A stretch of 59,604 bases of DNA from Candidatus Heimdallarchaeota archaeon (GCA_015523565.1 WAKA01000131.1:1-59604), one strand, 5' to 3'; counted from the stretch's first letter, positions 26,631 through 49,476 are shown. Numbers and translations are program-made. Notes: generated by a model from the sequence alone, not told the origin.

Positions 26631-27893
26631 GTGCCCCATATTTCAGAGAAAATGATCATAGCCTCAATTTTGGTGGGAATCGTTGTCATTGCACCCATTT
26701 CCATGTGGGTATATGTGGACAATCAAGCAGAAAAAGCAAAACAAGACCTAGAGAATGCACAATTTATGATATATGATGTGGACATCCTGAACATAAGCAA
26801 TGGGCAAATATTTTTTAATATTACAGGGGAAGTTAAAAATTTGAATACAACACGTTCAGAAGTGTTTACGATAGAGAGTTTTCAATTGATTTTGGATCCA
26901 AATGCATCCAGACCAGTTGTTATTCCAGTTGACACTAATGCGATATCAACCGTAATGGACAATATGTCATTTTCATTTGTTTCGTCAATTGAAATTAAAG
27001 ATTTGGAAAATTCCGACAGCCCTTTTTTGGGGAATTTAATCTCTTCAGGAATGTTTGACATCCCATTTCTTGGAAGAATTTCTGCCAAAGCAAATGGAAT
27101 CAGGAAAAGCATTGAATTTGACAATGTCCTACATTTTTACTTATCAAGGGGCATTGTAATGAATGTAACAGAAATCTCAAATCCAATCAGTTCCAAATCA
27201 GTTGACACCAATGTTACAATCATGATTTCAAATCAGTTTTCTGCTGATTTTGACATTACAGGAATTGTAAAAGTAAATATGGGGGAATTAGTATTGGGAA
27301 ATATAGATTTAACCAATCCATTGACTTTAGAGTCGGGATCCAAAGAATATAAGCTTCCATTAAAGTTGGAAAGATCATACAAAGAGAGTCTTCAAAGTCT
27401 GATTACAAGTGAAAATTTCACTTTTGTAGTAGAAGGGGAGATAACTGTAGTCAATGAGAATGCGGAAATCCCTGCGGAAATTCAATTGAAAGTTGAAACG
27501 GGTGAGGGGTTAACACCTTTGGGGTGGCAAGTTGACAATTTTGTTATCAATGATTATGATCCATTTAGTGGAAACGGGACAGTTGTCTTTAATATAACAA
27601 TATTCAACAACCTACCAATCACAATCCCCATCAATTTCCTTGAAATGGACCTGGCAACACTTACCAACATAAATTTTGCAACTGTCTTTTGGGACGGGAA
27701 GGCAACATACATTCCAAAATATTCCTATGAAAAGCTTTTCAATGTCACAGGATTTTTGAAGGGCGTGAATGCAATCCTTTTGGGCAAGATTACTCAAGAC
27801 AAGGCAATCAAGGTTCCAAAAGCAATAATAAGGATATTTACACAACTTGACGAGTTTGATCTGGTTTTTTCCATAGACCATATCGATCTATAA
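26631..27893 (+). CDS. N-terminally anchored extracellular beta-sandwich protein (LEA_2/WHy-like repeats)
   Basis: Single N-terminal TM; three beta-rich modules with I.N-type motifs (EVKNLN, ISNQFS, IFNNLPITI); many N-X-S/T. Confidence 0.55.
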   Translation: MPHISEKMIIASILVGIVVIAPISMWVYVDNQAEKAKQDLENAQFMIYDVDILNISNGQIFFNITGEVKNLNTTRSEVFTIESFQLILDPNASRPVVIPVDTNAISTVMDNMSFSFVSSIEIKDLENSDSPFLGNLISSGMFDIPFLGRISAKANGIRKSIEFDNVLHFYLSRGIVMNVTEISNPISSKSVDTNVTIMISNQFSADFDITGIVKVNMGELVLGNIDLTNPLTLESGSKEYKLPLKLERSYKESLQSLITSENFTFVVEGEITVVNENAEIPAEIQLKVETGEGLTPLGWQVDNFVINDYDPFSGNGTVVFNITIFNNLPITIPINFLEMDLATLTNINFATVFWDGKATYIPKYSYEKLFNVTGFLKGVNAILLGKITQDKAIKVPKAIIRIFTQLDEFDLVFSIDHIDL

Positions 27894-28757
27894 GAAAAGA
27901 GATGAAATAAGTATCAGTGGATATAAAGACAAAAATGTAATCAGAATTGAATCAGTAAATTCAAAATCAAATTGCTCCATTAAAAATGAGACTTGAAAAA
28001 TCGCCAACATTGTGCTGCTTAGAAAGGCAAGAACCCCTTGAAAAATTGGAATTGAGACCACATCAGGTGAATTTTCAATGAGCAAAACAAGTCCAAATAT
28101 AATCCCAGGAATAAACAGTGGGGAGAGAAAAACATAGTTTCTGAGAAAGGCAGACACAATGGTAGATTTAGGAGGAAAATCCAATGTCCCCTTTACCTTG
28201 CGGTAAGCCATGGAAACAAAGAAGATCATGAGATTCATAGAAGATGCCCAAATGATGATGGACAAGAAAGAATCCCAAAAGTCAACCTTAGTTCGAAAAT
28301 CAACCAATGTTCCAAACTGAATCATTTGGGTCGATGAATATAGGGACGAAAGAAGTAAATAGAGTATAATAACTTGTTGAATCACGAACCAAAGGGGTGC
28401 TTGGTTTATCCTATGCATTGCCTTGCTCAAGAACATTGGTACAACGGGTTTTTCTTCCACCTCTATGGTTTCATCCTCATCTTTCAAGATAAGTAAAGCC
28501 TTTTGACCCAGATCGCTAAGTATATATTTTTTGTCAAAGGTTTGTTGTATTAACCCTTTCATTTTTTTGATATGCCAATAGAACGATCCACTTTCCATCC
28601 CTGTCTCTTCAAGGATTTCAGAATAGGATATTGGACCATCTGCAATCAAGAAAAATAGTTTCAATCTATTGGTATTGCTTAATGGCTTGAATATTTCCTC
28701 AACTCGGGTTTTCAATAGATCAAAGTCATGTTGATCGCCTTTATCCCGAGAGAGCAT
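27888..28757 (-). CDS. ArsR-like winged-helix regulator fused to a multi-pass membrane domain
   Basis: IFKPLSNTNRLKLFFLIADGPISYSEI...SGSFYWHIKKM...YILSDLG, then about 5 TM helices. Confidence 0.82.
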   Translation of the reverse strand: MLSRDKGDQHDFDLLKTRVEEIFKPLSNTNRLKLFFLIADGPISYSEILEETGMESGSFYWHIKKMKGLIQQTFDKKYILSDLGQKALLILKDEDETIEVEEKPVVPMFLSKAMHRINQAPLWFVIQQVIILYLLLSSLYSSTQMIQFGTLVDFRTKVDFWDSFLSIIIWASSMNLMIFFVSMAYRKVKGTLDFPPKSTIVSAFLRNYVFLSPLFIPGIIFGLVLLIENSPDVVSIPIFQGVLAFLSSTMLAIFQVSFLMEQFDFEFTDSILITFLSLYPLILISSLFL

Positions 28758-28783
28758 TAATTACAGAACCTACCTTATCTGTT

Positions 28784-29941
28784 TTAAGGGTATTTCTTTT
28801 TTTTCTGCATAATCACAAGAAGTGCTGTAATGAACGGCAATGCAACAAGTTGTCCATACCATTGTATCTGCGGGGATAATGAAACAATTTTTTGATATTC
28901 TTGAAATAGGCTTGCACTAAAATCGGGGTCGTGAATAATCATCCTACCAGATGGATAAATCAGCCCATAGCCAAGAGAAGCATCCTTTTTTAAGCGATAA
29001 TATGTTTGGTTAAGTTTTGCCAAACGGGTGGAATAATTGCTTTTTTGTTTTTTGACATTGACAACCTTGTCCATTCCATCAACTTTCACATTAGGAACCC
29101 AAGAATAATTAATATTTAATAGAGAGCCATGTCGCAATGATATTTTGGAAGGGCGGATAGAGGTATTCCCTATATTCTCATACTTTTGGACTGTCTGGAT
29201 CTGGGATCTTGCCTCGAGAAAATCCTTGGGAAAATCAACTCTCATGAAAATTCTCAGGAGTACTGGAAGGATGATAAGATTAATTCTTTCTTTAGGCATG
29301 TTGAACAAATAATGGTTGATTTTCAAACTTAAACCAATGTTCCTCCCAAAACTTTTTTTCTCAGATATTGAATAGGAATTGATGTTTTCTTGTCTGATAA
29401 CTGGAATTTTTTTTGTGGTCTCTATTTGTGATGCATTAATTTGAAAATTAAGTACGATACTTGAATTTTTTAAGGCAGGAACAACGTCCAGACTTGCGGA
29501 CAAGTTGACTGATAACTGTGCAATTGTACCAATCCGTCTCTTTTGAACATCTATATTCCAATCCAAGTTAGAGAACATGAGGTGCTGACGAAAAGTTTTG
29601 CCTTGTGGATTACGGATTTGAAATAAAAGTTTCGGGAACGAAAGAAATATAACCTGTGTTGATTGGATTGGGATTTTGTATCCATTTTTTTCAAAGTATG
29701 CCAGATTTGTTTGGGTAATCATTGCAAAATGTGCGGCATAGCTATTGTTGCTTTGTCCTGCAAGGAACAGACCCATGAAATTATCATATCGGACACCATA
29801 AAATTTTGTATTTGTTGAATTAAAGGATACTCCATGGTATTCTTGGAAAATTGCACGCCGAACTGGACGGACATTGGCTTGAGCAGGCAACAAGGGCATT
29901 ACAAGCAACAATACAATAAAAATTGAATGAATGGATTTCAA
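28784..29941 (-). CDS. Secreted, C-terminally anchored surface protein (HDPDF motif), basic
   Basis: Signal peptide ending AQA, beta-rich body, YPSGRMIIHDPDFS, terminal TM plus KKKK. Confidence 0.7.
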   Translation of the reverse strand: MKSIHSIFIVLLLVMPLLPAQANVRPVRRAIFQEYHGVSFNSTNTKFYGVRYDNFMGLFLAGQSNNSYAAHFAMITQTNLAYFEKNGYKIPIQSTQVIFLSFPKLLFQIRNPQGKTFRQHLMFSNLDWNIDVQKRRIGTIAQLSVNLSASLDVVPALKNSSIVLNFQINASQIETTKKIPVIRQENINSYSISEKKSFGRNIGLSLKINHYLFNMPKERINLIILPVLLRIFMRVDFPKDFLEARSQIQTVQKYENIGNTSIRPSKISLRHGSLLNINYSWVPNVKVDGMDKVVNVKKQKSNYSTRLAKLNQTYYRLKKDASLGYGLIYPSGRMIIHDPDFSASLFQEYQKIVSLSPQIQWYGQLVALPFITALLVIMQKKKKYP

Positions 29942-30007
29942 TTGTCTTCAATTATATATGATGCCTTAGGGCATATATACTTACAGCTTAAGAAATCTTG
30001 GGGTGTA

Positions 30008-31894
30008 TCAAAAGAGAAAGGAAAGGGTATCGTAGAGCTCTTGCAGATCAATTGAAACATCAATTGATTCAAAATAATTGGACCAAGCTGTATCAAGGGC
30101 TTTACGAGTCCCTTTTTCTATTTGTTTTGAAATTGGAGGAAGATCCATGAATCTTAGTTTATCAAATTCACCAAGTATTTTCTGGCGAAAGATTGGTGGA
30201 ACAGAGATAGGATTTATCATAAGGGGCTCATTGGAGTAATCAACGATTTGAAGTCTCCCAAGGTCACGACCGATTATCCTTCTGCTCCGCATGAAAAAGT
30301 ACAAGAAAAAACTGGAAGAAAACCATGAAGCAAGGAGTTTCAAAGTTTCTTTTTCACCCCTGAACATGTAAAAGTTTTTGGTGGGGATGACAAGATCGTC
30401 CATAAAGTGCACATATGTACCTACAGTTTTCATGCCAAACTTGTCAACCATTGCAAGATTAGTGAAAGGAGATTTTGTCTGGACTTGAAAATAAGGATGA
30501 TGTATCCATTGGGCACCAAATTTTTTTATGGCTGGTGTAGCATAGGCTTTTGTCCTAGCAACATATTCCTGAACAGCCTTATGGGATTCCTGATTTGGGG
30601 GGATAATGAGAAGATAATGCATAACATTTGGAGAGATTTTGTTTTTGTAGAGGGAGGGCTTCCTGAGAGCCTTTTTCAAGAATGAACGAGGCATTTCAAG
30701 AATATATCCGTCTGGGGACACAATTGCAATTGTATCATGTTTTTCATCCAAAATCCGCCAAGTTTTATTGGGTATCAGAAAGAATTCGGGACCATACATC
30801 TCTACACCACGTCTGAGCAAATTTTCATGGGCAGATGTCGTTTGAAGGCATTGGGATTGAAGAACCTTAAGTTGAGGGGAGACTGGATAAATGAATTTGA
30901 GCCAATTCCAGGCACCTTCCAATTCTTTTTGAGAAATTGAATTTATGTTGTGCATTTTTTTGGCTTGATCAATTTGGGAAAATGTGACAACATTTGTATC
31001 TGGAATGGATTTGCTTGCAATTAAAATTAGCTCACGGATTTTACTGCCATCGGAAAATGATGTCATTCCAGGGTTTCCAATGATTTGATGAATCGTATAA
31101 TTTTGAAGCAGGAATTTCTTAATTCCAGAGGCATATTTTGCAGTAAAGGTTCCAGACGGAAGAATAGCAATAAGTGTCCCACCAGTCGTTAGCATTTTAT
31201 CTGCCAAGAAGAGGGAATAGACATGCAACCCCATCTGTCCTTCAAAGTACTCCATATAGGATGAAAGAGACTCTTTTATTGTATCAAGCGAGCTAGGAGT
31301 CAAATAATGGGGACGAGTAAACGGAGGATTCATGACAACAATGTCAAAAAGATTAGAGATATTTTGTAGCTTGAATGCATTTGAATGAAAAATGGTTAAT
31401 TCTGTGGAGTGTGTAAGCATCAATGGCATAAGGGTTTGAAGAGAGGAGAGAACAGAGGGGAAATAAATTTCAGACCCGAAGATTGACAGAGGATGGGAAT
31501 AAGACTTTTGCATTTCAAATAATAACCTACCACTGCCATGGAATGGATCAGTCACTTTTCTTGCCGTAGGATTATATCGATAAGCAAGTTTTCCAAGAAA
31601 CTTGGCAATGGGTTTATTGGTGAAGTTTGCAGAAAGCCTTCTTTTTAACCCAAGATTAATTTTTTGTAAAGATCGACCATAATTGGGGTTCTCTGCAATG
31701 AGATTTTCCCCTAGTTCCTTTAATTCATTTAAGAGAAGAGAATTGATGAAAACCTGTTTTTTGTAAGTCTTTAATTTGTCCAACAATTTGCGATCCAAAA
31801 TTGGACAAACATCCCTAGAAAATCCTAAACCCTCAATATCCGATGATGTTATGCCAAAAGGAGAAAAAGATGAAAAAACATGATCAAGAATCAT
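30008..31894 (-). CDS. N6-adenine DNA methyltransferase (gamma-class / Eco57I-like), apparently orphan
   Basis: Motif I DPFHGSGRLL, motif IV DIVVMNPPF, GG.LIAILP, long C-terminal target-recognition region. Confidence 0.85.
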   Translation of the reverse strand: MILDHVFSSFSPFGITSSDIEGLGFSRDVCPILDRKLLDKLKTYKKQVFINSLLLNELKELGENLIAENPNYGRSLQKINLGLKRRLSANFTNKPIAKFLGKLAYRYNPTARKVTDPFHGSGRLLFEMQKSYSHPLSIFGSEIYFPSVLSSLQTLMPLMLTHSTELTIFHSNAFKLQNISNLFDIVVMNPPFTRPHYLTPSSLDTIKESLSSYMEYFEGQMGLHVYSLFLADKMLTTGGTLIAILPSGTFTAKYASGIKKFLLQNYTIHQIIGNPGMTSFSDGSKIRELILIASKSIPDTNVVTFSQIDQAKKMHNINSISQKELEGAWNWLKFIYPVSPQLKVLQSQCLQTTSAHENLLRRGVEMYGPEFFLIPNKTWRILDEKHDTIAIVSPDGYILEMPRSFLKKALRKPSLYKNKISPNVMHYLLIIPPNQESHKAVQEYVARTKAYATPAIKKFGAQWIHHPYFQVQTKSPFTNLAMVDKFGMKTVGTYVHFMDDLVIPTKNFYMFRGEKETLKLLASWFSSSFFLYFFMRSRRIIGRDLGRLQIVDYSNEPLMINPISVPPIFRQKILGEFDKLRFMDLPPISKQIEKGTRKALDTAWSNYFESIDVSIDLQELYDTLSFLF

Positions 31895-31952
31895 TTTGCA
31901 ATAGATAGAGATAATTTACGGACTTTATTTTTATTGCTATGAAGTTTTGTGT

Positions 31953-34900
31953 CTATTGAACGGGTGTTTTTTTGACGGGGTTATCAACCATATAAAATTC
32001 AGTAGAGATATTAAGAACAGCAGATCCATCAATAGTGACAACTAAACCATGCTGTGCTTGGAATTCAGAAGAGTAGATACCCAATTGATAGCTGTAAGCC
32101 ACGTATGTCCCATCTCCTACACCAAGGAATGTAGCTATTCCACTGGAGTTAGTAATGGCATAGTATCCAGTCCATTGATAGTATCCATTACCAGAAGGCA
32201 GGTAAAGGTAGACATAGGCCGATGTAAGAGGAGTGCCATCATAGTCAATCAATTTGACATAGACAGTTCCACCACCAATGTTTACTTCATGGATATCGCC
32301 AGATTTGGCAGTTATTTGACCACCAATATACGACTGGCCATAGGTAAAGTATGCTTTAGTTACAACTAAGACATATTTGCTTTGGTTGTTGGCATAGACA
32401 GTTGCAACACCAGAGGAATTTGTATAACCATAGCCAGCTTGAATCCCCTGATATGAGAGATACACCCTCATTTGGGGAACGGTATTGTTGGCACCATCTA
32501 GAACCCGTATATATATTGGGACAGGATGGATTTCCACATTTTTGTTGGCAGTCGCATTGAAGAGATTTGAGTATACATAGCCCTTGCCAGGATAGTAGGA
32601 ATAGGCAAGATATGAGGCATTGACAACCGCATTCAGAACAGCAACACCTGAGGCATTTGTTTTTGCCCATCCACCCCAATAGCCCTCTGTAGTCCGCAGA
32701 TATACCCATTGGTCTGCACCTACCTTGGATGTGGAATCAATTTGATATACACTTACAGAGACGGTTGTCGTTGCTAATGAATACTCGAACAATGTATTCC
32801 CAGTCACATTGAATGTTGATGATTTCTGCGATACAACAGGATACTTGTATATTCTTAGATAATATGAGTCATTTATCACGAATGAAAACACGGCGTATCC
32901 AGTCGTATTAGTTTTAGCCCAGCCAGAATACGTACCTAGTTCAGAGGAATATAAGTACACATAGGCATTTTGCAATGCAGAACCGTTGTTCAGTATTCGA
33001 ACTGTAAGTTGATGACCAATGACAACAATGGTAGTGACAAGTCCATCAGATGAATTTAAGGGTGAGGACAATATTTCCCTTCCTGACAGATATAACCGAG
33101 CCACAAGTTCAGTATTGTTTGGTGCAAGAACCGTGGCAATCCCTGATGAATTGAAAACACCATATCCTATATAGCTGTTATTGGAATTGAAGTAGATATA
33201 TGTATAAGTCCAAGAATTAGGTGGCTGGAACCCATTGCCGTTACTATCCACTAGTTTCACATATATTGTCACCAAATCAAACAGGACAGTGTTGACCGTA
33301 TTTTCCACTAATGTTATGGGCTTTGAATACAAGGAACCCATTCGGATCTTGTAAGTGGATCCATTACTGATGGTAACTGTGGCATATCCTGTTGAATTGG
33401 TTTTGCCCCATCCTGCGTATGAATTCTGGAGGGTATACAGATAGAAATAGGAATTCTTCAATGGTTGTCCAGAAGTTGTCATAAGACGTATTGTGGTGCT
33501 TGCAGGCTGAACCACAACTGTTCCACCGTTTGTTATGGTGAAATTGCTCGAGTAAAAGTACAGATATGGGCTATAAGAATAGACATAGACGCGATACATT
33601 CCAGATTCAGGAGCATTGAAGTTGGCTTTCCCATTAGAATCAGTTGTGGAATAACCAAGATAGACCCACCCAGAGGTGGCTGCATAAAGGTAAACCCTTG
33701 CATTCGCCAAATTGGTTCCATCTGAATTCTTTACATGAATGGTGAATGGAACCACATTGACAACCAACAAGACAGATGTGGTTATTGAAGTGTTGAATAC
33801 AGCAGTCTGTATTATGGTGCCATAATCAATGCCAATAGTGTAATTGGTGTTGGGCAACAATGCAAATGTGGCATTGCCATTTGCATTCAAATATTGTGTC
33901 ACATAGATTTCACCATTCAGATATGCATTCACCCTAGTGTATTTTATTGGATTGCCAGAATTATCTTGGACATGCACTTCGACCAATGTACCGCCAAGTT
34001 TAAACTGCACAACCATACCGTTTGTGGCGTTAAATGAGAGACTTCTTGCTTGGGTATATTTTCCACTGATGTAGAAGTACGTCCTCAGGTAGACACTGGT
34101 ATTTTCAGAAACCGTGGTTATAAACGTTGCAATTCCAGAAGTATTGGTTCTGGCAAATCCAAGATATTTGTTGTCTTTTGATGACATCAGATATACATAT
34201 TGATTTTGTCGTGGAGATCCATTCGGATTGGTCACATTCGCATAAATGACCAAACCTTGGATTGTGATGTTGTAAACCAGGTCTGAATTGACACTGAATT
34301 TGCTTGTGGAATGATATGAAGAACCAGCATAGTATTTAAGGTAATAAGATCCATTCTTCAGACCATAAAAGTCCGCAAATCCCGTATTGTTTGTTCTTTG
34401 GGAGCTTAAAGCCCTTCCAAACTCATCATACAATGAAACATATATAGAGGAAACGGGATCACCAGAAGAAGTGGTAACATTTACGGACAGATGATTTCCA
34501 TCCAAGTAAAATTCATAGACAGAACCTGGAACCACTTTGAATATACCAGAATTGTAGGTTTTTCCTTTTGTCACTTGTATTTTAAATTCGCTTGCAGGAA
34601 TTGAAAACGCAGCGTATCCTGTTGCATTGGTGTATTTATATCCGACGTATGTTGCAGAGGATCCAATTACGGAATATGCACGGACAAATGCAGAAGAAAT
34701 GCCGACGTTATTCTGTTGCAGGACTTTGACATAAACAACACCAGGGTTGGTATTGATGTAAACATCCTTTGTTTGAGATACGTCAACAAAAGAGCTTGAA
34801 GCAGGAACGGTGGAACCATGATAGGCGTTAAATTTATATTCACCATTCAAAAGGTAAAAAGTGGCTGAGCCATTAATATTTGTAGTTTTTGAGATGCCTG

Positions 34901-35816
34901 TGACTTGTTCCACAACCTTGTTGTTTACAATGACTTTTTTGTATGAATAAATGGTTGCTCCATCAACAGGAACATCATTTTCGGAATAGTGAACGTTTAC
35001 AGCCTGGATTTGGCTTTTTATGGGAACCTTCCTGAATAGCTTAAAGTTGTCCAATCTTGCAGGATGAGTAAACACAGCAGTTTTCTTGACATCTGTTGGC
35101 GAAATGTAGATTTTCAGGTAGTATTTCCCAGCCCTTAACCTAAAAGAAGCCTTGCCATTATCATCTGTTACTTTTTCGACAGATGCAGGCAAGTCTTTTC
35201 TGGCATCAAAGGGGACAACCTTAATACCCTTGAGTTTGCGACCACCAGCTTGAAGCAGTTCGACTGCGTCTGGTTCATTTCTGGATGCGGCCATTTCCAA
35301 TTGCATTCTTAGTGTGGCAGATATTACAGTGCTATCCTGTAATTGAAATGTTAGAGGGTCAGTAGGGTTGATTTCAGTCACAGAACCAGTAAGTTTTGCG
35401 TTTCCACCAGCCATAGAGAATATTAATGTATATGAATCCCCAATTGAAAATTGTTCGCTGGATTTTCCAGCGGTTATTACCAATTTCCCTGGTTCAGAGG
35501 CACTGATAGAATCTGATGTTAGTGGCAGAGACCACCAAGAATCTCCTACGAAGACTCCATTTGAAAAAATGACCGACACATTGGCAATTGGAACTGAATT
35601 CACAGTCTTGGTTGTTAAGTCAAAGACTGCCAAATCAGCCTTGCCATCACCGTCAAAATCATAAAATTTGTCTTCGCTAAGTGAGACATCATATATTGAG
35701 GATCCCTTATTAATATAATAATTCACCAATAATGCCACGGATGCTGCGGCGGCAACAACAATAGCGATCAAAAGCATTGTAGCGACAATTGGAGAGACTG
35801 CTTTTCTACCTTTCAT
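31953..35816 (-). CDS. Giant type IV pilin-like protein with about 13 tandem carboxypeptidase-regulatory/transthyretin-like beta-sandwich repeats
   Basis: Class III signal MKGRKA|VSPIVATMLLIAIVVAAA; DFDGDGKAD loop; repeats of V.V.D..G.P....V.LY...TN..G.A.F; no C-terminal TM. Confidence 0.85.
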   Translation of the reverse strand: MKGRKAVSPIVATMLLIAIVVAAAASVALLVNYYINKGSSIYDVSLSEDKFYDFDGDGKADLAVFDLTTKTVNSVPIANVSVIFSNGVFVGDSWWSLPLTSDSISASEPGKLVITAGKSSEQFSIGDSYTLIFSMAGGNAKLTGSVTEINPTDPLTFQLQDSTVISATLRMQLEMAASRNEPDAVELLQAGGRKLKGIKVVPFDARKDLPASVEKVTDDNGKASFRLRAGKYYLKIYISPTDVKKTAVFTHPARLDNFKLFRKVPIKSQIQAVNVHYSENDVPVDGATIYSYKKVIVNNKVVEQVTGISKTTNINGSATFYLLNGEYKFNAYHGSTVPASSSFVDVSQTKDVYINTNPGVVYVKVLQQNNVGISSAFVRAYSVIGSSATYVGYKYTNATGYAAFSIPASEFKIQVTKGKTYNSGIFKVVPGSVYEFYLDGNHLSVNVTTSSGDPVSSIYVSLYDEFGRALSSQRTNNTGFADFYGLKNGSYYLKYYAGSSYHSTSKFSVNSDLVYNITIQGLVIYANVTNPNGSPRQNQYVYLMSSKDNKYLGFARTNTSGIATFITTVSENTSVYLRTYFYISGKYTQARSLSFNATNGMVVQFKLGGTLVEVHVQDNSGNPIKYTRVNAYLNGEIYVTQYLNANGNATFALLPNTNYTIGIDYGTIIQTAVFNTSITTSVLLVVNVVPFTIHVKNSDGTNLANARVYLYAATSGWVYLGYSTTDSNGKANFNAPESGMYRVYVYSYSPYLYFYSSNFTITNGGTVVVQPASTTIRLMTTSGQPLKNSYFYLYTLQNSYAGWGKTNSTGYATVTISNGSTYKIRMGSLYSKPITLVENTVNTVLFDLVTIYVKLVDSNGNGFQPPNSWTYTYIYFNSNNSYIGYGVFNSSGIATVLAPNNTELVARLYLSGREILSSPLNSSDGLVTTIVVIGHQLTVRILNNGSALQNAYVYLYSSELGTYSGWAKTNTTGYAVFSFVINDSYYLRIYKYPVVSQKSSTFNVTGNTLFEYSLATTTVSVSVYQIDSTSKVGADQWVYLRTTEGYWGGWAKTNASGVAVLNAVVNASYLAYSYYPGKGYVYSNLFNATANKNVEIHPVPIYIRVLDGANNTVPQMRVYLSYQGIQAGYGYTNSSGVATVYANNQSKYVLVVTKAYFTYGQSYIGGQITAKSGDIHEVNIGGGTVYVKLIDYDGTPLTSAYVYLYLPSGNGYYQWTGYYAITNSSGIATFLGVGDGTYVAYSYQLGIYSSEFQAQHGLVVTIDGSAVLNISTEFYMVDNPVKKTPVQ
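32020..35250 (-). repeat. Protein-level tandem repeat array, about 13 units of about 80-85 aa
   Basis: Recurrent cores TDDNGKASF, TNINGSATF, TNATGYAAF, TNNTGFADF, TNTSGIATF, LNANGNATF, TDSNGKANF, TNSTGYATV, FNSSGIATV, TNTTGYAVF, TNASGVAVL, TNSSGVATV, TNSSGIATF. Confidence 0.88.
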
Positions 35817-35826
35817 GGTTCTTCAC

Positions 35827-37701
35827 CTAACCTTTCTTTTTAATTATGACGAATATTACACCGAATATGCCAATTATGGTGCCGATTATTCCCACCAATA
35901 ATATTGGAGAATTTCCATCATTAAAGTTGCCATTTAAAATCTCATTTATTCCACCTTGTGAGGAGGAGGATAAGAATGCCCCCGTAGATTGGGATTGGTT
36001 TTGTGGTACTATTTTTGTCGTAAATGACCATTCCATCAACAAATTCAGGTCAGAAATGGAAATGGAACCTGAAAAATTAAGATCCAAAGGTTCATCAAGT
36101 AAATCAAATCCTTTTGCAATCCAGACAAATGTAATCATTCCTGAGGAATTGGTCAACCCTACAGCAGTAGTGTCGTTGGATGATTCAAACACACCCAATA
36201 TTGTTGAAATTGATACTAAAGCACCTGAGTATGGTTGAGATGTTTCATTGTAGACCATAATTGTTATCTTCAGTTTTTCGTTAGGATGAACCTCGTCGTT
36301 ATCCGCCATGACATCATATGAAAAGCTCAATGGCAACGGCTTGACATGAATGTTTGCAGAATTTGTTGCAATTCCAGTCTCGTTGCCATATGCCTCTACA
36401 AGAATACTGACAGTTGTTCCGATAATTGAAAGAGGAATTAAATCAGCAACCCAGATTGCGGATGCCCTACCATTCCCATCTGACTTCAGCAACAATTTTG
36501 TTTTCCCGTTTTCCAAGAAATAGCCTTCATTACTTGTCAACGATATTGTTGCCCCAATTACCTTGGTTGTTTTGTGGGTAATCTCCAAGTTGATGAGAAC
36601 AGTTTGATTGACTTCGACATCAGTCTCGTTGATACTCAAATTAATTGTATAAATGATGGGGGAAACCTGTAAGGTTTTATTGATTGTGATTTGAGCACCT
36701 GCTTTGGTTATTATTGCTTGGAAATTGACATTAATTTCACTGGCAACGGATGGGGCAGTCCACAAAAATGTTGCAACTCCAGTTGAGTTCGTTGTTGACT
36801 GTTCGCTGAAGGATCCTAAGGAATTTTGGAATAATATAACCTCTGCATTTGATACGGTACCATCGGTTCCATTAGCTAAAACAAAAATTTGTACGGATTC
36901 ATTGGTTTCAATAGATGATTTTGAAAACAAAATGAATGATCCATTGAGATCATATTGCTTAAGTTGAATTTGAATGGTTGAGATGTAATTAAGTCCTGAG
37001 CGAATTGTTGCAGTGGCTTGAAGGGTGACGTTAATGTCTTCAGAAATGCTGGGAGGAGCAGACCATAAAGTGGATGCCTTTCCCAATGAATCAGTCAAAA
37101 CATTAGTTGAAGAAAAGTTGCCGATACCATCTGAGGAGTTGAAAAAGACTTGAATGCCACTGAGATCACCTCCATTGATCGAAAATGAGGAAAAGGTTAA
37201 TGAAACCGTTTCTCCAGGGTGGACAACAGAAGTGTTACCATCCAAAGACGTTGATGTCAATTCAACAGCAGAAGGGGTGATTGTAATAAATTGACTTTGC
37301 AATGAATATGTATCGCCACCATAGGTCACATTCACCTTGATTTCCACGTTTGGTATTTCGATGTTCGATTCAGGAACATACCATAGCAGGGAAATATAAC
37401 CAGACGTATTCGATGGGCCAAATACGGAAGGAACATTTGCAGATTCATTTCTAATGAGGTCTCCAACAATTCCCGAATCGCCAAAAGGGGAAATGATTTG
37501 GATAGAAGCATCAGCACCTGATACTGAACCACTTGAATTTGCGGTATAGATATTTATTTGTGTTACACTTCCATCCAAAACAAAACCAGTTCCATTCCCA
37601 ACAGAAAAGGTTGAGGAATCCAAGATAATGGCGGTGGGAGGAAGAATGATAAAACTGCTTAGAAGTAGAGAAAGAAGAAGTAATGATTGTTTTTGAAGCA
37701 T
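35827..37701 (-). CDS. Membrane-anchored surface protein with about 5 invasin/intimin-type (Big-1-like) Ig domains
   Basis: Signal peptide; repeats TDSLGKASTLWSAP, TNSTGVATFLWTAP, SDGNGRASAIWVA, TNSSGMITFVWIA; C-terminal TM plus KKKG. Confidence 0.8.
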   Translation of the reverse strand: MLQKQSLLLLSLLLSSFIILPPTAIILDSSTFSVGNGTGFVLDGSVTQINIYTANSSGSVSGADASIQIISPFGDSGIVGDLIRNESANVPSVFGPSNTSGYISLLWYVPESNIEIPNVEIKVNVTYGGDTYSLQSQFITITPSAVELTSTSLDGNTSVVHPGETVSLTFSSFSINGGDLSGIQVFFNSSDGIGNFSSTNVLTDSLGKASTLWSAPPSISEDINVTLQATATIRSGLNYISTIQIQLKQYDLNGSFILFSKSSIETNESVQIFVLANGTDGTVSNAEVILFQNSLGSFSEQSTTNSTGVATFLWTAPSVASEINVNFQAIITKAGAQITINKTLQVSPIIYTINLSINETDVEVNQTVLINLEITHKTTKVIGATISLTSNEGYFLENGKTKLLLKSDGNGRASAIWVADLIPLSIIGTTVSILVEAYGNETGIATNSANIHVKPLPLSFSYDVMADNDEVHPNEKLKITIMVYNETSQPYSGALVSISTILGVFESSNDTTAVGLTNSSGMITFVWIAKGFDLLDEPLDLNFSGSISISDLNLLMEWSFTTKIVPQNQSQSTGAFLSSSSQGGINEILNGNFNDGNSPILLVGIIGTIIGIFGVIFVIIKKKG

Positions 37702-37826
37702 CTCGCGTTAAATTAGCTTTGCAACCTATTTAAATAAATTGACATTTAAACAGGATTTTTCTTCTTTTTTTAAAAATCGAAAGAAAAGCAAGATTATAGA
37801 ATTCAAACAACAGGATAAAGGGAGAG

Positions 37827-40800
37827 TCAAGCTTCTAAAACAGAACCATACAAATTCTGTATATCCCATGATTGTTTTTTAAGGAAATTCAGAATTTGTG
37901 CTTTGGAATCATCAGGAAGACTATGGAACAATTCCTTGATACGTGAAGAAGAGGAAAGGAAGGATCGAAGTTGAAGTTCAACAGCCAAATTCTCATCAGG
38001 AGAAGAATGCATGTTTTTCATTGAATTGAGGATTTGTTGTGGATTCCTTACCAGCCAATTAGAGAAAGCATGTGTCAAAACAGAGAGGTAGGCGATAGAA
38101 GTGATTTCTACCTTATGAAGAAGGGATTGCAAATAGCCTTCCAATAAGCGATAAAATATAACCATTAAAAATCCATGAGGAAGGTTTTCAGTTGTGACAA
38201 GATCGTCAATAACAGAAGTCAGAAATTTTGATCCCTGAAACCCATTTTTCATGATATGATCCAACATTGTCTTGTCAAAAAATATTTTTTGAATAACAAG
38301 ATATTTTACATAATTGCTAATGCATGAAAGTTCTGATAAATTTGGGATGGGGTCTGGAAATCTAAGGAATTGGAGAAGTTGTGCAAGGCAATCAAGCTTA
38401 GTCTTGACCTGAGAGGAAAGTGAAGAGGGAAACTCAACATTTTCTTTCAACATTAGAGAGAGAAATGCAAAGTCAGAAACCAATTCACCATAATAATCAC
38501 CAAGTTTATCCCATTCCATGAACAATGTGGGGGTAACCTCATTCCAAAGAAAAAGAAAAATTTGTAAGAATACCTTTTTTGTTCTTTTGTTAAACCAAAA
38601 TGCAAGAAACTCATTGATTACCTCAATCCTATCTCGAATGATAGAAGATACACAGGCTATAGTGATGACTTTATTGAATTGGGAAAAGTCATCGATACGG
38701 TCTAAAATCACCTCTAGGAATTTTTGGAGATACCATTGCTCCTTTGGAAAGAAAGACATTACAAGAAATGGAACAGCTTTTGGGTATAAGGAATAATTGA
38801 CCTTAGCAATTGATAGAAATTGGAAAAACTCATCAATCCTTCCTTCAATTGGTAGATTCTCAACATGTGTACTAAACAGTTCTTTGATAAGGCGTTCTTG
38901 ACCAATAAGTTGTTTTGGATATTTCCATCCTTTAACTAGATATTCAATCAAGAATTGTTTCAGATGTTTATCTCGATATCTTAAGGTAAAAATAATTGAA
39001 GTTGGCAATTGCAAAACAAATGCATATCCCGCAATTTTTATGGCATAGAAATCTGTGAGATTGATGTCGGGTAAGACATTCTGGATAGATATGAAAGACA
39101 AAGCTTCATCTTCATTGAATTGTGCAAGATGGTCAAGAAAAGCTTGAAGGAGTGACTGTAATGAGTTAATAGTGATAGGATCATGATCAAACAATAGCAG
39201 ATATAATGAGATAATGGGAAAATCATCAACAAACCTAAGTTTTCCGTTAATTTGGGGGAGACAATATTCCATCAATGTTTTTAGGGAGGGGGAACGGGAT
39301 TCTACAAAATGCAATAATTCCTCAATAAGGTCTGGTTCAATCAAGAATTCACCTTTCAATAATAGGTCCATATATTGGTAGAAGGCATTATCAGACCAAT
39401 TGGCATTAAGATAATGCATAATCAGACGATTAACGAATTTGTGGTTAAGTTCATCGCGAGGTATTTTTGATGCAAATGAAGCAAACGAAACCGTATTGTC
39501 AGATGAATAAAGTAGTTCATTGAACTTTTCACCAAAAGAAATGATAAAGTCAATCAAGGTCATCATCTTATGGTTTGAGGAATAATGCCAAGTTAATGCA
39601 TTTAGCACCAAATCAGGGAAGTATTGGTCAGGAAGATATACAAAACATTCGACGAGCGATCCAGCAAGATTTCGAAGGGTTCTTGAAGATTGGGTAAGTT
39701 CCAGCAAGTTGATGGAAAAGGTTTCCAAAAGTTGGGTTTTTTCATGAATTGGATTCTGAATTGTTTGCAAAAGAGACAATGTTTCCATCAAAACATCTTC
39801 CAAGTAAGGGAAGGTAGCTTCAATCAATTGTTCCGATACCGTTGTACCAGAAATAAGCAAAAGCGAAGTAAAATAAGCACAATGTTCCAAATTGATTCTC
39901 TGCATTTTGGATCTGTTTCCAAGCAGTTGAAGAAGAAGAGAATGAAGTTCCTCCAATTCCGCACGATCATATGGATTGAAATATACAAGTTGGGATTCCC
40001 ATGATTTGAATGTTTTTTTCACATTGGACATCTTATTGATTACATCCATGTCAATTGGGGAAAACGAATAAGTTTTTACTTCACGAATGATTTTCCTTAA
40101 TGTCTCGTCAGAAGTTATACGAACATGATTGTTACACAATTCAGTATGCAACAATATGAATTTGAATTTACTTCGGCATTTTTCAATTAGCGTGGATAGA
40201 CCATTGGTGGGGATGGGTATCCAATCTCGAAATGACCATTCAAAGGAGGGGAAAGACAAATCTGTATAGTGTTTTTCATAAAGTCTCATTATTTCCCCAA
40301 AAAACCTTGATCCTTCAGAAGTTTCCAGTATTGAAATTATATAGGGTGTAAAATCAATGATTTCCTTCAATTTAAGTGGGTTTTCAAATAGGAGATTGGG
40401 AGTTTCAATAATTTGGAACCCTAAAAACATCAGGGAATTCATGGAAAGTGTTTTGTTAGAAATAGTTTCCATGTCTAGAAGCTTTGTTTGAAAATCATCG
40501 ATTAATTGACCTAAAACATAGTCTTGGTCAAGTTTTTGGAAGTGGTTTTTTAACCAACAGGAAATGGCAAAATCAGCAAATGAACGTCTTGATATGGGGG
40601 GAAATATGAAATAATCACCATTGGGTTCATTAAATAAAGGAGGGCTTTTGATATTAAAGATGAAATGACTTCTTGTTTTTTTGGCTGACAGCACCTTTTT
40701 GAATAGTTTTGAAATGTTGGGAGGAATTTTATCAGGATTTAGAAATAAAATGTCTGCGTGATCAATTGCGAAAATTACTTCCTTTGGTTTAAAGAGCTTG

Positions 40801-41687
40801 TGCAATGATGAGATGATTGCAGTAAAGGATTTGGCGGAGGCAATCTTGTCAAGGACATCATCCACCATATCGGCGGAATTTCCAATAAGAGCGTCTTGAA
40901 AATCATTTTCGAGACGATTAACCAAATATTCTTGAAAAGAGGAAGAAAGAAATATGGTTGGCAAATCCAAGTATATCACAACCATATCATCCCATAACCT
41001 CTGTACATGTTGTAAAAAGGCGGAGGATCCATCATTATGCTGGGAAATCATTATTTTCAGATCATCATGCTTTTTGATGCAATACTGTTTGAACTGATTA
41101 AACTGATTCTTGCGCAATAGAGGAAGCGTAGGAATAGCAAATTTCTGAAGAAAATAATCTGAAAAATAGTTTCTGTCTAAAAAATATTCAGATGTACAGG
41201 GAGAAAGTTGATTTCCTTGTTCCTTTTCCAAGCATAGTGATACCAACCATCCCTTTATAGTTAGTACAATCCCATCCCATCCAGTTTTCTTTCCTTTTGG
41301 TCGAATCAATGAGATCAGATTTTCATTGGATAGGGATTCAATGACATTAGTGTTGAATAATTGACGAAATTTTTTTTTGTTTCCAAATAGGGCACCCCAC
41401 TGGTCAACCTTTCCTTTTTTATCTGCCTGGTGCATAAGCATTATTTCTTTCCGTGATACTTTTCGGAATGCAGCACTTGGGACAAAAAGGTCAAGAGGGG
41501 TTTCGGGATTTTGGCATATGGATTCATGGATCAGGCGTGCAGAATGAAGCAAAAATTGGGCAGGGATAAGATTTAAACTCTTGCAATACCCTTTGACTTG
41601 ATTAAAGAAGTCTTGTGACAGTAGGGTATCATAGGAAATTTCAGGAAAATTTTCAATTGGCAAGGCACGATCATGTTCATTATGCAT
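37827..41687 (-). CDS. Large hypothetical protein: putative wHTH, degenerate P-loop ATPase (STAND/archaeal-ATPase-like) and Leu/Phe-rich helical region
   Basis: 1286 aa open frame; IMISQHNDGSSAFL at the Walker A position, VIYLDL, VIFAIDHAD at the Walker B position, IFPPIS. Confidence 0.55.
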   Translation of the reverse strand: MHNEHDRALPIENFPEISYDTLLSQDFFNQVKGYCKSLNLIPAQFLLHSARLIHESICQNPETPLDLFVPSAAFRKVSRKEIMLMHQADKKGKVDQWGALFGNKKKFRQLFNTNVIESLSNENLISLIRPKGKKTGWDGIVLTIKGWLVSLCLEKEQGNQLSPCTSEYFLDRNYFSDYFLQKFAIPTLPLLRKNQFNQFKQYCIKKHDDLKIMISQHNDGSSAFLQHVQRLWDDMVVIYLDLPTIFLSSSFQEYLVNRLENDFQDALIGNSADMVDDVLDKIASAKSFTAIISSLHKLFKPKEVIFAIDHADILFLNPDKIPPNISKLFKKVLSAKKTRSHFIFNIKSPPLFNEPNGDYFIFPPISRRSFADFAISCWLKNHFQKLDQDYVLGQLIDDFQTKLLDMETISNKTLSMNSLMFLGFQIIETPNLLFENPLKLKEIIDFTPYIISILETSEGSRFFGEIMRLYEKHYTDLSFPSFEWSFRDWIPIPTNGLSTLIEKCRSKFKFILLHTELCNNHVRITSDETLRKIIREVKTYSFSPIDMDVINKMSNVKKTFKSWESQLVYFNPYDRAELEELHSLLLQLLGNRSKMQRINLEHCAYFTSLLLISGTTVSEQLIEATFPYLEDVLMETLSLLQTIQNPIHEKTQLLETFSINLLELTQSSRTLRNLAGSLVECFVYLPDQYFPDLVLNALTWHYSSNHKMMTLIDFIISFGEKFNELLYSSDNTVSFASFASKIPRDELNHKFVNRLIMHYLNANWSDNAFYQYMDLLLKGEFLIEPDLIEELLHFVESRSPSLKTLMEYCLPQINGKLRFVDDFPIISLYLLLFDHDPITINSLQSLLQAFLDHLAQFNEDEALSFISIQNVLPDINLTDFYAIKIAGYAFVLQLPTSIIFTLRYRDKHLKQFLIEYLVKGWKYPKQLIGQERLIKELFSTHVENLPIEGRIDEFFQFLSIAKVNYSLYPKAVPFLVMSFFPKEQWYLQKFLEVILDRIDDFSQFNKVITIACVSSIIRDRIEVINEFLAFWFNKRTKKVFLQIFLFLWNEVTPTLFMEWDKLGDYYGELVSDFAFLSLMLKENVEFPSSLSSQVKTKLDCLAQLLQFLRFPDPIPNLSELSCISNYVKYLVIQKIFFDKTMLDHIMKNGFQGSKFLTSVIDDLVTTENLPHGFLMVIFYRLLEGYLQSLLHKVEITSIAYLSVLTHAFSNWLVRNPQQILNSMKNMHSSPDENLAVELQLRSFLSSSSRIKELFHSLPDDSKAQILNFLKKQSWDIQNLYGSVLEA

Positions 41688-41706
41688 TTTTTCACCGTGA
41701 AAGCCA

Positions 41707-42258
41707 TTAGTCCATTTGTAAAGAAGCTATGATTTCATCGACTAAATCTTCAAAAACTTTTTCTACATTGAATCCAAGCAAGGCAGAGGTTTCAATATAA
41801 CCAACATCATAACCAGACCAATCCGAAAGGGTTTCTGCGTACTGTTTAGCAACATCTGTTGGCACACACCATTTTTCACCCTCTTTTCTAAGATCAACCT
41901 TGTTTCCAACAAGGATAAAGGGAATCATTTTGCCAACGTTTTTCACAACCTCATTGATCCATTGTGGGATATGTTCATATGTTTGAGGTCTTGTCACATC
42001 AAAAACAACCAATGCACCATTTGCACCATTATAGTATCCCTCCCTGACAATTTCAAAATTTTCTTGACCTGCAAGATCCCATATTTGGAAAATGGTGTTT
42101 CCAACCCTTTTAATTCCAAAATCGGCACCAATAGTCATTAAGTAATTGTATGAAAAGCCTTCTCCAAGGTATCTTCTCCGTAGAGAAGTCTTCCCCACCA
42201 TAGGGTCACCGACTAGAACAAGCTTGAATGTTTGCTTTTGATCGAAATCCATCTTCAA
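41707..42258 (-). CDS. Rab-like small GTPase (Ras superfamily, eukaryotic signature protein)
   Basis: G1 GDPMVGKTS, G2 TIGADF, G3 WDLAGQE, YYNGANGALVVFDVT, G4 NKVD, G5 ETSA; no C-terminal prenylation Cys. Confidence 0.95.
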   Translation of the reverse strand: MKMDFDQKQTFKLVLVGDPMVGKTSLRRRYLGEGFSYNYLMTIGADFGIKRVGNTIFQIWDLAGQENFEIVREGYYNGANGALVVFDVTRPQTYEHIPQWINEVVKNVGKMIPFILVGNKVDLRKEGEKWCVPTDVAKQYAETLSDWSGYDVGYIETSALLGFNVEKVFEDLVDEIIASLQMD

Positions 42259-47764: not shown

Positions 47765-49476
47765 GTGTATAACGTTGTAATCTTGGAGATGATTGCTTCA
47801 TTTCCAAGCACTTCCACAGCTTTCGGGAAACCAAATTCAGTCAATTGATTCAAGGAATCAAAAATTTGGAACGCTAGTGTGGCATCATTGGTTTTCAAGA
47901 GCCAATTTGCCATAAATTCAATAGTTCCTTCAACACCATATTTGTTCCAATATAGCCTTTGATGTCTGCGGATCCATCGTCCAAATGCTAAAAAAGCCTC
48001 ATCCATATCTTTTGCACCAGCAAATTCCAAAGTGAATTCATCAACATCGGTGTATTCACTCAGTCGCATTTGTAGGACAATATGCCAATCTTGTCTGACA
48101 CTTGGTAATTCAAGATTTTTCTTGAAAAATTCTTCCCATGGCAAATCAGGGTCAGAAATAAGGAAGGTTCCTGCACGAGTTCCATTGGCATCATGAATAA
48201 GGACACGAAATCCCCATTGATTGCTTTGACGAGGAGGAAGTTTAAGTAAATCTAATTTTAATTTTTCTTTAGTAATTTGTGCAGTATTGGCAAGAATAGT
48301 TGGCAGAGAAGGCGCCAATTCAACGAATTTTCCTGTTTCAAGGGCCCGGTGTATTTCTTCGCTGGGGAGTAGCGTAAGGGCATACATCAATCTTTCGTCT
48401 CCAGGTTGTAGAGTGCCATTGGTCCAGTATTCAAGATCAAAGGTTTCTTCAAGCACGATATATGGGCTTGGACTACCCAAAGTTATGTCAACAAGTCTAT
48501 TTGGGTTATCCCTGAGAAAATCTTCAGAAAGTTGTCCTGTCAGTCTCCATTCACTTTTCCCCTCACGAAAGATATCTTGAAGAATTTCAAGCATGACACG
48601 TGTCATCGTTCCTTCTCGTTCCACATGGTGCAATAGTCGTTCAAAGAAAACAAGTATTTGTGCAAAATCATTTCCGGTAATACCGTTCTGCCAATCCAAT
48701 AAATCATTGAATTGGACAATGAGATATCTGTCTTCCAACTTTGCAACATCCAAAGCATTTTCAAGTTGTTCCAGTTCATCAATCTCATCTTCAGTTTCAT
48801 CTTGTTCAAAAAGGTCACCAAGATCTTCATCTAAGCTACTGAAAACTTCAAGAAGCTCATCTTCTGCGATACCTAGTTCTGGGATAGTGCTAGGAGGAGT
48901 TTCAGAAACTGGAGAAGTGGAACCAAAATTTTCCAGTTCTGCAAATGGATTATCTAGGCTGGGTTGAAGAGGTGTATTTTGTTTCTCTTCTTTTACTTTC
49001 ACTTGTGAAAGGTTTGAACGTTTTTGTTTCCCTTTAGGGATTTTTGCCCAAAGGTCTTCAAGTTCAATTTCCTCTTTCATTTCAAAGAGTTTTTCAATTT
49101 CTTGTTCAATGATCTCTATGACACGAAAATATGACCAAATATAGGGGATTGACTTGAATGCCCCCTTATAGGTTCGAAGGTTCTCAAGACCTTGTTGAAG
49201 AGTGGTTCTAAATGCTACAGGCTCTACACGGAATGCCGCAAGTTGTTCTAGATCAAAATCCCTCCGAACCTTTTTAATGCTATCAGGAATGAGCTCTTTT
49301 CGGGTCACTAAATCCTCAGGCTGAAATAACAGGAACCACGCAAGGGGGATCATGTTTCTGCCGATGAATGACGGAAGGGCATCGTCACCAAGCAGTTTAG
49401 AGGAACCAATATAGAGAAAAGAGTCCATTTCAAGCCAATAACAGAGTCGTCCTAAATAAGATTGTAGGTTTATCAA
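47761..49476 (-). CDS. Hypothetical protein with central acidic disordered linker
   Basis: 571-aa ORF, likely start MDSFLY at 49428; acidic stretch EDELLEVFSSLDEDLGDLFEQDETEDEIDELEQLE between two globular parts. Confidence 0.7.
   Translation of the reverse strand: MINLQSYLGRLCYWLEMDSFLYIGSSKLLGDDALPSFIGRNMIPLAWFLLFQPEDLVTRKELIPDSIKKVRRDFDLEQLAAFRVEPVAFRTTLQQGLENLRTYKGAFKSIPYIWSYFRVIEIIEQEIEKLFEMKEEIELEDLWAKIPKGKQKRSNLSQVKVKEEKQNTPLQPSLDNPFAELENFGSTSPVSETPPSTIPELGIAEDELLEVFSSLDEDLGDLFEQDETEDEIDELEQLENALDVAKLEDRYLIVQFNDLLDWQNGITGNDFAQILVFFERLLHHVEREGTMTRVMLEILQDIFREGKSEWRLTGQLSEDFLRDNPNRLVDITLGSPSPYIVLEETFDLEYWTNGTLQPGDERLMYALTLLPSEEIHRALETGKFVELAPSLPTILANTAQITKEKLKLDLLKLPPRQSNQWGFRVLIHDANGTRAGTFLISDPDLPWEEFFKKNLELPSVRQDWHIVLQMRLSEYTDVDEFTLEFAGAKDMDEAFLAFGRWIRRHQRLYWNKYGVEGTIEFMANWLLKTNDATLAFQIFDSLNQLTEFGFPKAVEVLGNEAIISKITTLYT

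Follow-up and report, generated by a model that had tools for sequence, protein, structure and literature searches.

The window analysed here is the whole of contig C131 (59,604 nucleotides; GCA_015523565.1, WAKA01000131.1:1-59604) from the 3.57-Mb, approximately 90% complete genome of a Candidatus Heimdallarchaeota archaeon. On its minus strand lie two adjacent genes that are likely to encode the components of one surface system: P0001 (31953..35816, 1287 amino acids), an archaeal surface protein of the modular, or giant, type IV pilin-like kind, and P0002 (35827..37701, 624 amino acids), its dedicated membrane-anchored partner, with a role that is probably adhesive. This reading is carried by the class III signal of P0001, the fold of the head that follows it, the long array of repeats beyond the head and the conserved adjacency of the two genes. 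Neither open reading frame (ORF) is due to chance, since full-length orthologues of both exist in other genomes.

Signal, head and rod of P0001

The N-terminus of P0001 reads MKGRKA/VSPIVATMLLIAIVVAAAASVALLV, where the slash marks the predicted cleavage site. Residues 1-36 (35709..35816, on the minus strand, as are all features of the pair) comprise the class III signal MKGRKA/V and the N-terminal hydrophobic helix, as indicated by profile hidden Markov models (HMMs), conservation and structural modelling. The leader is short and basic, with a small residue at position -1 and a basic one at -2, and gives way to a hydrophobic helix of approximately 20-30 residues; the rule for these two positions is known from FlaFind and PibD substrates. 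The class III signal read in the initial annotation of this DNA is confirmed by both models that describe it, as Pilin_N (PF07790) scores 27.6 bits against a curated cut-off of 25.2 and TIGR02537 scores 27.6 bits against 20; in a six-frame search of the genome, the Pilin_N score is 30.1 bits. The bacterial N-methyl pilin model (IPR012902 motif) was not found in P0001, and an NCBIfam scan at E<=0.1 returned TIGR02537 alone. Judged by its sequence, P0001 is the archaeal counterpart of modular pilins, outside the bacterial IPR012902 set. The sole hydrophobic segment of the protein spans residues 4-35 and hence, as first claimed, there is no C-terminal transmembrane (TM) helix. Among 11-13 orthologues V7, S8, P9 and A12 are invariant, and [KR]-x-[AGS]/VSP[IV] followed by approximately 27 hydrophobic residues is kept in all of them. 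Because the cleavage-site context [KR]x[AGS]/VSP persists at overall identities down to 24-31%, class III processing is suggested to be under selection.

The signal is followed by a beta-sandwich head of the pilin/archaellin type (residues 37-166, 35319..35708). AlphaFold2 (AF2) models, which rested on 11-13 orthologues, reached a predicted local distance difference test score (pLDDT) of 82 for a three-domain construct (residues 1-350) and of 80 for the head modelled by itself, with values of approximately 80-93 across the head domain. In these models, a helix (residues 9-36) precedes a beta-sandwich (44-164), which is joined by a short helical linker (167-189) to the beta-sandwich repeats; the head model accordingly shows the helix plus beta-sandwich 'lollipop' subunit fold. 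With the three-domain model, Foldseek returned generic tandem-Ig matches alone (TIE, SdrD, the MG domains of complement C3, GhpA and Gram-positive pilins), and the head was modelled alone because this search could not judge it. The best matches of the isolated head in the Protein Data Bank (PDB) are 9eq7, 5tfy, 6pbk, 7ofq, 8fj5, 8q30, 6w8u and 8fk7, which comprise archaellins, FlaF/FlaG and archaeal type IV pili. A search with VIA-align, independent of Foldseek and covering 48,161 representative chains, placed nine archaeal type IV filament (T4F) subunits on top, with Z-scores of 8.3-10.6. The match to 5tfy has a Z-score of 10.6 over 149 residues, that to FlaF (4p94) a Z-score of 9.8 with a root-mean-square deviation (rmsd) of 2.2 over 95 residues, and the lowest-rmsd superpositions of the head sandwich are with FlaF and FlaG. 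The pilin-sized head proposed at the outset is thus assigned by AF2, Foldseek and VIA-align to the archaeal T4F subunits.

Within a confidently modelled hairpin of the head lies the DxDxDG loop that had been noticed before, in its full extent DxDxDGxxD (residues 53-61, 35634..35660). It reads D53-F-D55-G-D57-G58-K-A-D61 and is conserved, with D53 invariant among 11 orthologues and G58 and D61 retained in at least 90% of them. The loop is FG-GAP-like and, by this resemblance, a candidate Ca2+ site. An exhaustive representative search with residues 1-175 gave approximately 500 matches to the FG-GAP-like DFDGDGxAD motif, several hundred of which match in the motif only because the loop resembles FG-GAP Ca2+ loops. 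About ten proteins match the whole head, and most of these are 1250-1300 amino acids long.

Beyond the head, a helical linker (residues 167-195, 35232..35318; modelled helices 167-178 and 182-189) leads into a rod (residues ~196-1259, 32040..35231) in which a CarboxypepD_reg/transthyretin-like beta-sandwich is repeated 13 times, as recognised both by HMMs and in the model. An HMM derived from P0001 itself finds 13 repeats of approximately 84 amino acids within residues 170-1259. CarboxypepD_reg (PF13620) scores 69.4 bits on the rod against a cut-off of 32.3 and Ig_DR_A0283-like (PF24025) 73.5 bits against 27.1, the Pfam labels for the repeats being CarboxypepD_reg, Ig_DR_A0283-like, Big_1 or MG-like, and AF2 models the repeats as beta-sandwiches. 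Tyr and Trp make up 9.7% of P0001, compared with 3-5% in neighbouring proteins, so that the early count of about 13 Tyr/Trp-rich beta-sandwich repeats is borne out. P0001 therefore has the layout of a modular pilin, with a pilin module (residues 1-166), a linker (167-195) and then 13 CarboxypepD_reg-type domains. A TNx[ST]G sequon stands in a conserved position of most rod repeats; the protein as a whole contains 34 N-x-S/T sequons, where 18.7 would be expected, and no Cys. The lack of Cys together with the excess of sequons, which P0002 shares, is an extracellular signature. The array closes with a short non-hydrophobic C-terminal tail (residues 1260-1287 plus the stop codon, 31953..32039; 24% mean identity).

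Conservation is uneven along the protein. The N-terminal helix and the last repeat, R13, are its best conserved parts, and the linker, the head and the C-terminal tail its least conserved ones, with the linker lowest (mean 22% identity to orthologues). The total length is 1255-1330 amino acids in 12 of the 12 orthologues, and orthologous repeats are 40-56% identical, against a mean of 23% between repeats inside P0001. Since the length is constant and each repeat is nearest its orthologue, the rod appears to be an old array of fixed length and not a rapidly expanding repeat adhesin.

The anchored partner and the conserved gene pair

P0002 begins with a Sec-type signal, which is followed by five Ig-like domains; a Ser-rich linker then leads to the C-terminal TM helix, and the protein ends in a KKKG tail. 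The putative signal peptide (residues ~1-28, 37618..37701) contains a hydrophobic segment at 6-28 and has an equivalent signal-like N-terminus in all P0002 orthologues. Five evenly spaced T[DN]xxGxA[ST]xxW motifs point to five Ig-like domains of approximately 105 amino acids each. The C-terminal TM anchor comprises residues 597-623 (35833..35913; hydrophobicity 2.93), and six of the six orthologues likewise end with a TM helix and, after it, a basic tail. P0002 has 23 sequons against 10.7 expected, and no Cys. The upstream gene was therefore rightly described as encoding a membrane-anchored Ig protein, and its further naming needs correction. In Pfam and NCBIfam nothing scores above threshold for P0002 (Big_1 reaches 15.6 bits against a cut-off of 34.9, and MG4 is also sub-threshold), and a profile built from the P0002 alignment found no meaningful relative among PDB sequences. 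'Big-1-like' can accordingly be kept in the sense of a loose resemblance, below the threshold of the family, whereas 'invasin-like anchor' has to be dropped: there is neither an above-threshold Big_1 domain nor a Pfam match in P0002 to an N-terminal outer-membrane beta-barrel, and a single C-terminal TM helix provides the anchor instead. To our knowledge, archaea have no outer membrane.

The two genes belong together across genomes. Eight near-full-length homologues of P0001 were found among 5.8 billion clustered proteins, under database names such as 'type IV pilin [Candidatus Kariarchaeaceae archaeon]' in one source and 'flagellin-like protein' in another. Full-length orthologues of P0001 occur in six of the 83 genomes of the class (that of the window counted), which represent three families of the order. 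At all six orthologous loci with upstream sequence, a full-length P0002 orthologue (24-50% identity) lies 0-23 nucleotides upstream of the pilin orthologue, and the pairing persists at loci whose flanking genes are unrelated. A profile of P0002 detects 24 loci in 20 of the 83 genomes, and at least 17 of the 24 adjoin, by their coordinates, a pilin gene of at least 900 amino acids. The conserved two-gene order that had been put forward as a check is thus found well beyond this contig. An anchored partner next to a giant pilin also occurs at loci of five genomes of the set, often with overlapping stop and start codons, and a giant pilin without such a partner is found at three loci of the large-genome family f5 and at one of family f7. 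The pairing is old and selected, which is the main reason to think that both proteins act together.

The genome of the window holds a paralogous locus on contig C122 (2852-9009), where two P0002-like genes, for anchored proteins of 398 and 647 amino acids, flank the gene of a 1003-amino-acid class-III-signal pilin with CarboxypepD_reg repeats, the starts and stops of the three genes overlapping or nearly abutting. The 1003-amino-acid protein is 23.5% identical to P0001 over approximately 1000 residues. Across the class, Pilin_N ORFs fall into size classes of approximately 150, 390, 600, 1000 and 1290 amino acids, with about 32 ORFs of at least 900 amino acids in about 29 genomes. Genus g12 has mainly the 600-amino-acid class, and family f5 has pilins of about 1000 amino acids that lack an adjoining anchored partner. 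Elsewhere in the genome, C122:33269-39014 and C181:15022-18235 encode class-III-signal proteins of 671 and 280 amino acids; at a distance of one gene from each, there is a secreted protein anchored by a C-terminal TM helix (753 and 634 amino acids, respectively), and the pairing rule may therefore reach beyond giant pilins. In GCA_003696825.1 (L010:9291-13153) the orthologous pilin is called as two genes, of 230 (Pilin_N) and 1050 amino acids, a split that would be either a frameshift or an assembly error.

Contact between the two proteins was also addressed by co-folding. The prediction for P0002 (residues 29-624) with P0001 (residues 7-350) scored 0.52, whereas none of the three controls exceeded 0.00; 36% or more of the contacts recur between runs, and the partner's pLDDT is 76 or higher. 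When the method was calibrated, 58 of 80 solved complexes and two of 110 mismatched pairs attained the mark; just seven of these 80 complexes, but both mismatches, did so with a score of 0.60 or less. The model thus gives weak support for binding between P0001 and P0002, a small increase on a prior already raised by the gene linkage.

At the locus itself, P0002 lies upstream of P0001 at a distance of 10 nucleotides, both on the minus strand. The spacer (35817-35826), together with the final base of the P0002 stop codon (35827), holds the Shine-Dalgarno-like GGTGA (35823-35827), which shares the last base of the P0002 TAG stop; the ORFs, the junction and this GGTGA were all reproduced from the sequence as they had been reported. 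An A/T-rich, TATA-like element, ATTTATTTAAATA (37727..37739), read by eye, lies 26-38 nucleotides 5' of the P0002 start codon and is a possible archaeal promoter; it is preceded by an oligo-T stretch located 3' of the preceding gene. The minus-strand series of ORFs of 628, 1287, 624 and 1286 amino acids might be taken for a duplicated gene pair. This tandem duplication was rejected because the 1286-amino-acid neighbour is a cytosolic helical protein (no Pfam match, beside a Ras-like GTPase gene) and the 628-amino-acid one is an orphan Eco57I-type N6-methylase, so that the likeness in size is coincidental. In the comparison of 37827-42258 with a congeneric genome (L027), the Ras-like GTPase is 92% identical and its 1286-amino-acid neighbour 26%, with P0002 at 50% and P0001 at 63%; evolutionary rates differ greatly along this one syntenic stretch.

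Filament machinery, proposed mechanism and competing explanations

The genome encodes a type IV filament machinery, on contigs other than that of the pair. Contig C122 carries (at 47774-48589) a 271-amino-acid protein with Peptidase_A24 and Arc_PepC_II domains, that is, a prepilin peptidase of the PibD/FlaK type; C145 encodes a T2SSE ATPase (130.8 bits), whose PilB3-like C-terminus falls below the cut-off of that model, and C157 a second T2SSE protein; C198 encodes a 142-amino-acid Pilin_N pilin. At C72:15411-20132, two T2SSF ORFs (TadC/FlaJ platform) are followed by a 141-amino-acid ORF and by three pilin-like ORFs of 380, 170 and 210 amino acids, the latter without a Pfam family match. This is a probable type IV filament locus in which the platform is split or duplicated, and the contig stops before any ATPase gene could appear. 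The proposed search for PibD, PilB and PilC has thus located a peptidase, ATPases and a platform protein, so that a secretion ATPase and a TadC/FlaJ platform are both present genome-wide, unlinked to the gene pair. A dispersed arrangement of T4F genes has been described for Asgard genomes (PMC13705601), and the same pattern is seen here. A loose class-III-signal pattern gave 110 matches in the genome, mostly spurious, and was set aside; the set retained is the six proteins with [KR]x[SA][VI]SP, which were then checked by similarity. The motif is common to P0001, the 142-amino-acid pilin and four other large proteins of the genome.

In the mechanism proposed here, P0001 and P0002 would be made from one transcript. 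P0002 would be exported by Sec and tethered by its C-terminal helix, with five glycosylated Ig-like domains exposed. P0001 would be inserted by its class III signal and cut after Ala6 (KA/VSP) by the PibD/FlaK-type peptidase of contig C122, and the mature protein would keep its N-terminal hydrophobic helix. On this helix would sit the archaellin/pilin-type head, including the probable Ca2+ loop, and then the 13 domains of a rigid, N-glycosylated rod, whose extended length is estimated at approximately 45-50 nm. Two placements can be considered. The helix may remain in the membrane beside P0002, in the manner of FlaF/FlaG or of bindosome proteins, or the scattered ATPase and platform machinery may extract it, in which case P0001 would cap a short filament of the 142-amino-acid pilin. 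In either case, the rod would project from the cell as an attachment or spacing fibre. A membrane-resident complex is favoured tentatively, at somewhat less than an even chance, and display at a pilus tip is possible but rather doubtful; the slight lean to the former has three reasons, namely that the partner is fixed in the membrane, that the head resembles FlaF and that the pair is not linked to the machinery genes. A role of the pair in syntrophic contact, as the initial annotation suggested, is speculation.

Several observations weigh against the view of P0001 as a modular pilin with an adhesive role. T2SSE, T2SSF and Peptidase_A24 have no match on the 59.6-kb window, for which reason membership of P0001 and P0002 in a pilus operon was rejected, and since the T4F machinery lies on other contigs, only the signal and the fold connect P0001 to a filament. 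The membrane-fixed P0002 is hard to reconcile with display at the end of a long pilus. The domain scans of P0001 and P0002 recognised no ligand-binding domain, and the adhesive or spacing role, although probable, is read from the architecture alone. The co-fold score lies in a weak band in which, by the calibration, a prediction without a strong prior is more often wrong than right. Finally, the locus is dispensable, with full-length orthologues found in six of the 83 genomes of the class, and at the syntenic site of a same-genus genome (L034, 93% complete) the block 27888-37701 is missing. This block contains genes for a DUF7347 winged helix-turn-helix membrane protein, a 385-amino-acid secreted or anchored protein and the Eco57I-type N6-methylase in addition to P0001 and P0002, and it looks like an accessory indel block. 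Two small genes take its place in L034, which retains the GTPase gene and its large neighbour and still carries the paralogous three-gene locus.

The absence of T4F genes nearby, the anchoring of P0002 in the membrane and the fact that the best low-rmsd matches of the sandwich are FlaF and FlaG, stator proteins that reside in the membrane and do not build filaments, would all fit the view of P0001 as a plain signal-anchor surface protein, in which an uncut helix merely tethers the protein, makes no contact with pilus machinery and carries a head that is an evolutionary relic. This is nevertheless unlikely, given that the [KR]x[AGS]/VSP context is kept at 24-31% identity, which suggests selected processing, that the 142-amino-acid pilin and four other large proteins of the genome share the motif, and that a peptidase gene is present. 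A bindosome-like capture device, in which P0001 would be placed by its class III signal on a short pseudopilus, with the rod binding glycans, peptides or particles for uptake rather than for cell attachment, would likewise accommodate the scattered T4F genes of this genome, and pilus-unlinked class-III-signal binding proteins are widespread in archaea, where they have been proposed to functionalise T4F machineries (PMC13705601). The pair has, however, neither a substrate-binding-protein fold nor an ABC transporter beside it, and its domains are generic structural beta-sandwiches, all of which makes this explanation very improbable.

The pair could also be regarded as a two-component coat similar to SlaA/SlaB, with P0002 as the stalk and P0001 as the outer glycoprotein of a lattice or dense glycocalyx in place of discrete adhesive fibres. 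The arrangement of the two adjacent genes corresponds to such a coat, as one product is large, all-beta and rich in glycosylation sites and the other is a smaller beta-sandwich protein with a C-terminal anchor; the constant repeat number and length suggest a structural ruler, and related pairs are widespread in the order. In addition, Makarova et al. take the large C-anchored proteins of pilus loci as S-layer-like (PMC4858521). Unlike SlaA, however, P0001 possesses a membrane helix itself and carries a pilin head, the locus is absent in a close relative, and each genome has two or more paralogous pairs. A separate, tetrameric S-layer protein family, which cultured Hodarchaeales carry and which has been reported as conserved across Asgard lineages (bioRxiv 10.1101/2025.02.26.640444), also argues against a coat. 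No S-layer family is found among the Pfam matches of the pair, although no dedicated S-layer comparison was made. Taken together, a coat of this kind seems improbable, and the modular pilin-like protein with its anchored partner remains the preferred reading.

Relationship to known systems and significance

The closest conceptual precedent is found in the modular pilins of bacteria, such as PilB (with a von Willebrand factor A module) and PilC (with a lectin module) of Streptococcus sanguinis (PMC8179133, PMC9934059), which have a class III signal and an N-terminal pilin module with grafted C-terminal modules, as P0001 does, and for which an adhesive role has also been proposed. The survey of modular pilins found multi-repeat examples, the most extreme with 12 repeats in 860 amino acids, and capping of the filament tip was proposed for them (PMC8179133). 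P0001 differs in that it belongs to the archaeal Pilin_N/TIGR02537 type, is longer (1287 amino acids, 13 domains) and has no recognisable ligand-binding module; moreover, it lies outside a pilus operon and invariably has an Ig-domain protein with a C-terminal anchor as its partner. With the pilins and archaellins of archaea (Haloferax volcanii 8fj5, S. solfataricus 8fjs, Pyrobaculum 6w8u/8fk7 and archaellins 5tfy/9eq7) it shares the class III signal, the helix and the Ig-like head. These are filament subunits of 130-300 amino acids, whereas the pilin module makes up approximately 13% of P0001, whose incorporation into a filament is hypothetical. FlaF and FlaG (ArlF/ArlG; 4p94, 5tug, 6pbk) match the head sandwich with Z-scores of 9.5-9.8 and rmsd values of 2.2-5.3. 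They are archaellin-like, paired with a partner and kept in the membrane by their N-terminal helix, as may be the case for P0001, but they have 115-165 residues, are encoded in the archaellum operon, lack a repeat rod and are just 10-13% identical to it.

Pairs of comparable description are known from the pilus loci of Thermoproteales (clades 4B/4G; arCOG05616, arCOG07037; PMC4858521, PMC13705601), where a large signal-peptide protein stands with a large C-terminal-TM protein, both with Ig folds. The former has been read as a minor pilin or adhesin and the C-anchored one as 'S-layer-like' (PMC4858521). The likeness is one of description: the Thermoproteales proteins are Cys-rich and lie within ordered T4F operons, whereas P0001 and P0002 stand alone, have no Cys and are confined to Heimdall-group Asgard archaea. 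Bindosome-type proteins resemble P0001 in carrying a large non-pilin cargo on a pilin-type N-terminus, in having genes located away from the assembly genes and in their use of a shared base machinery; their cargo is a solute-binding fold beside an ABC transporter, in contrast to a structural repeat rod beside an anchored Ig protein. The initial annotation had called the system undescribed. The literature search found no description of the stand-alone Asgard pair, but the term has to be qualified, as orthologues are already named 'type IV pilin' or 'flagellin-like', modular pilins are known from bacteria (PMC8179133) and the Thermoproteales pairs have been noted (PMC4858521).

Cultured Hodarchaeales show unexplained knob-tipped filaments of 15-25 nm at contacts with partner methanogens (bioRxiv 10.1101/2025.02.26.640444). 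It is conceivable, albeit decidedly unlikely, that the pair belongs to a Heimdall-group-specific organelle, in which heads polymerise or cluster on P0002-type pedestals into rod-bristled thick filaments or patches that would be the basis of these structures. If this were true, the gene pair would give access to the way in which the archaea most closely related to eukaryotes make contact with other cells.

No relatives of eukaryotes closer than the Heimdall-group Asgard archaea are known, and these archaea live in attachment to partner microbes. Hardly anything is known, however, of the molecules on their surface, and the genes for type IV filaments lie scattered in their genomes and have not been assigned (PMC13705601). 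If P0001 proves to be merely another glycosylated adhesin, the gain would be the right annotation for a family now called 'hypothetical', 'type IV pilin' or 'flagellin-like'. More broadly, these two conserved genes form a concrete candidate for a surface fibre that has a defined predicted processing site, a fixed length of 13 domains, a probable Ca2+ loop and a protein that may be its binding partner. With them, the bacterial concept of the modular pilin would be extended to archaea, where it takes an extreme form.

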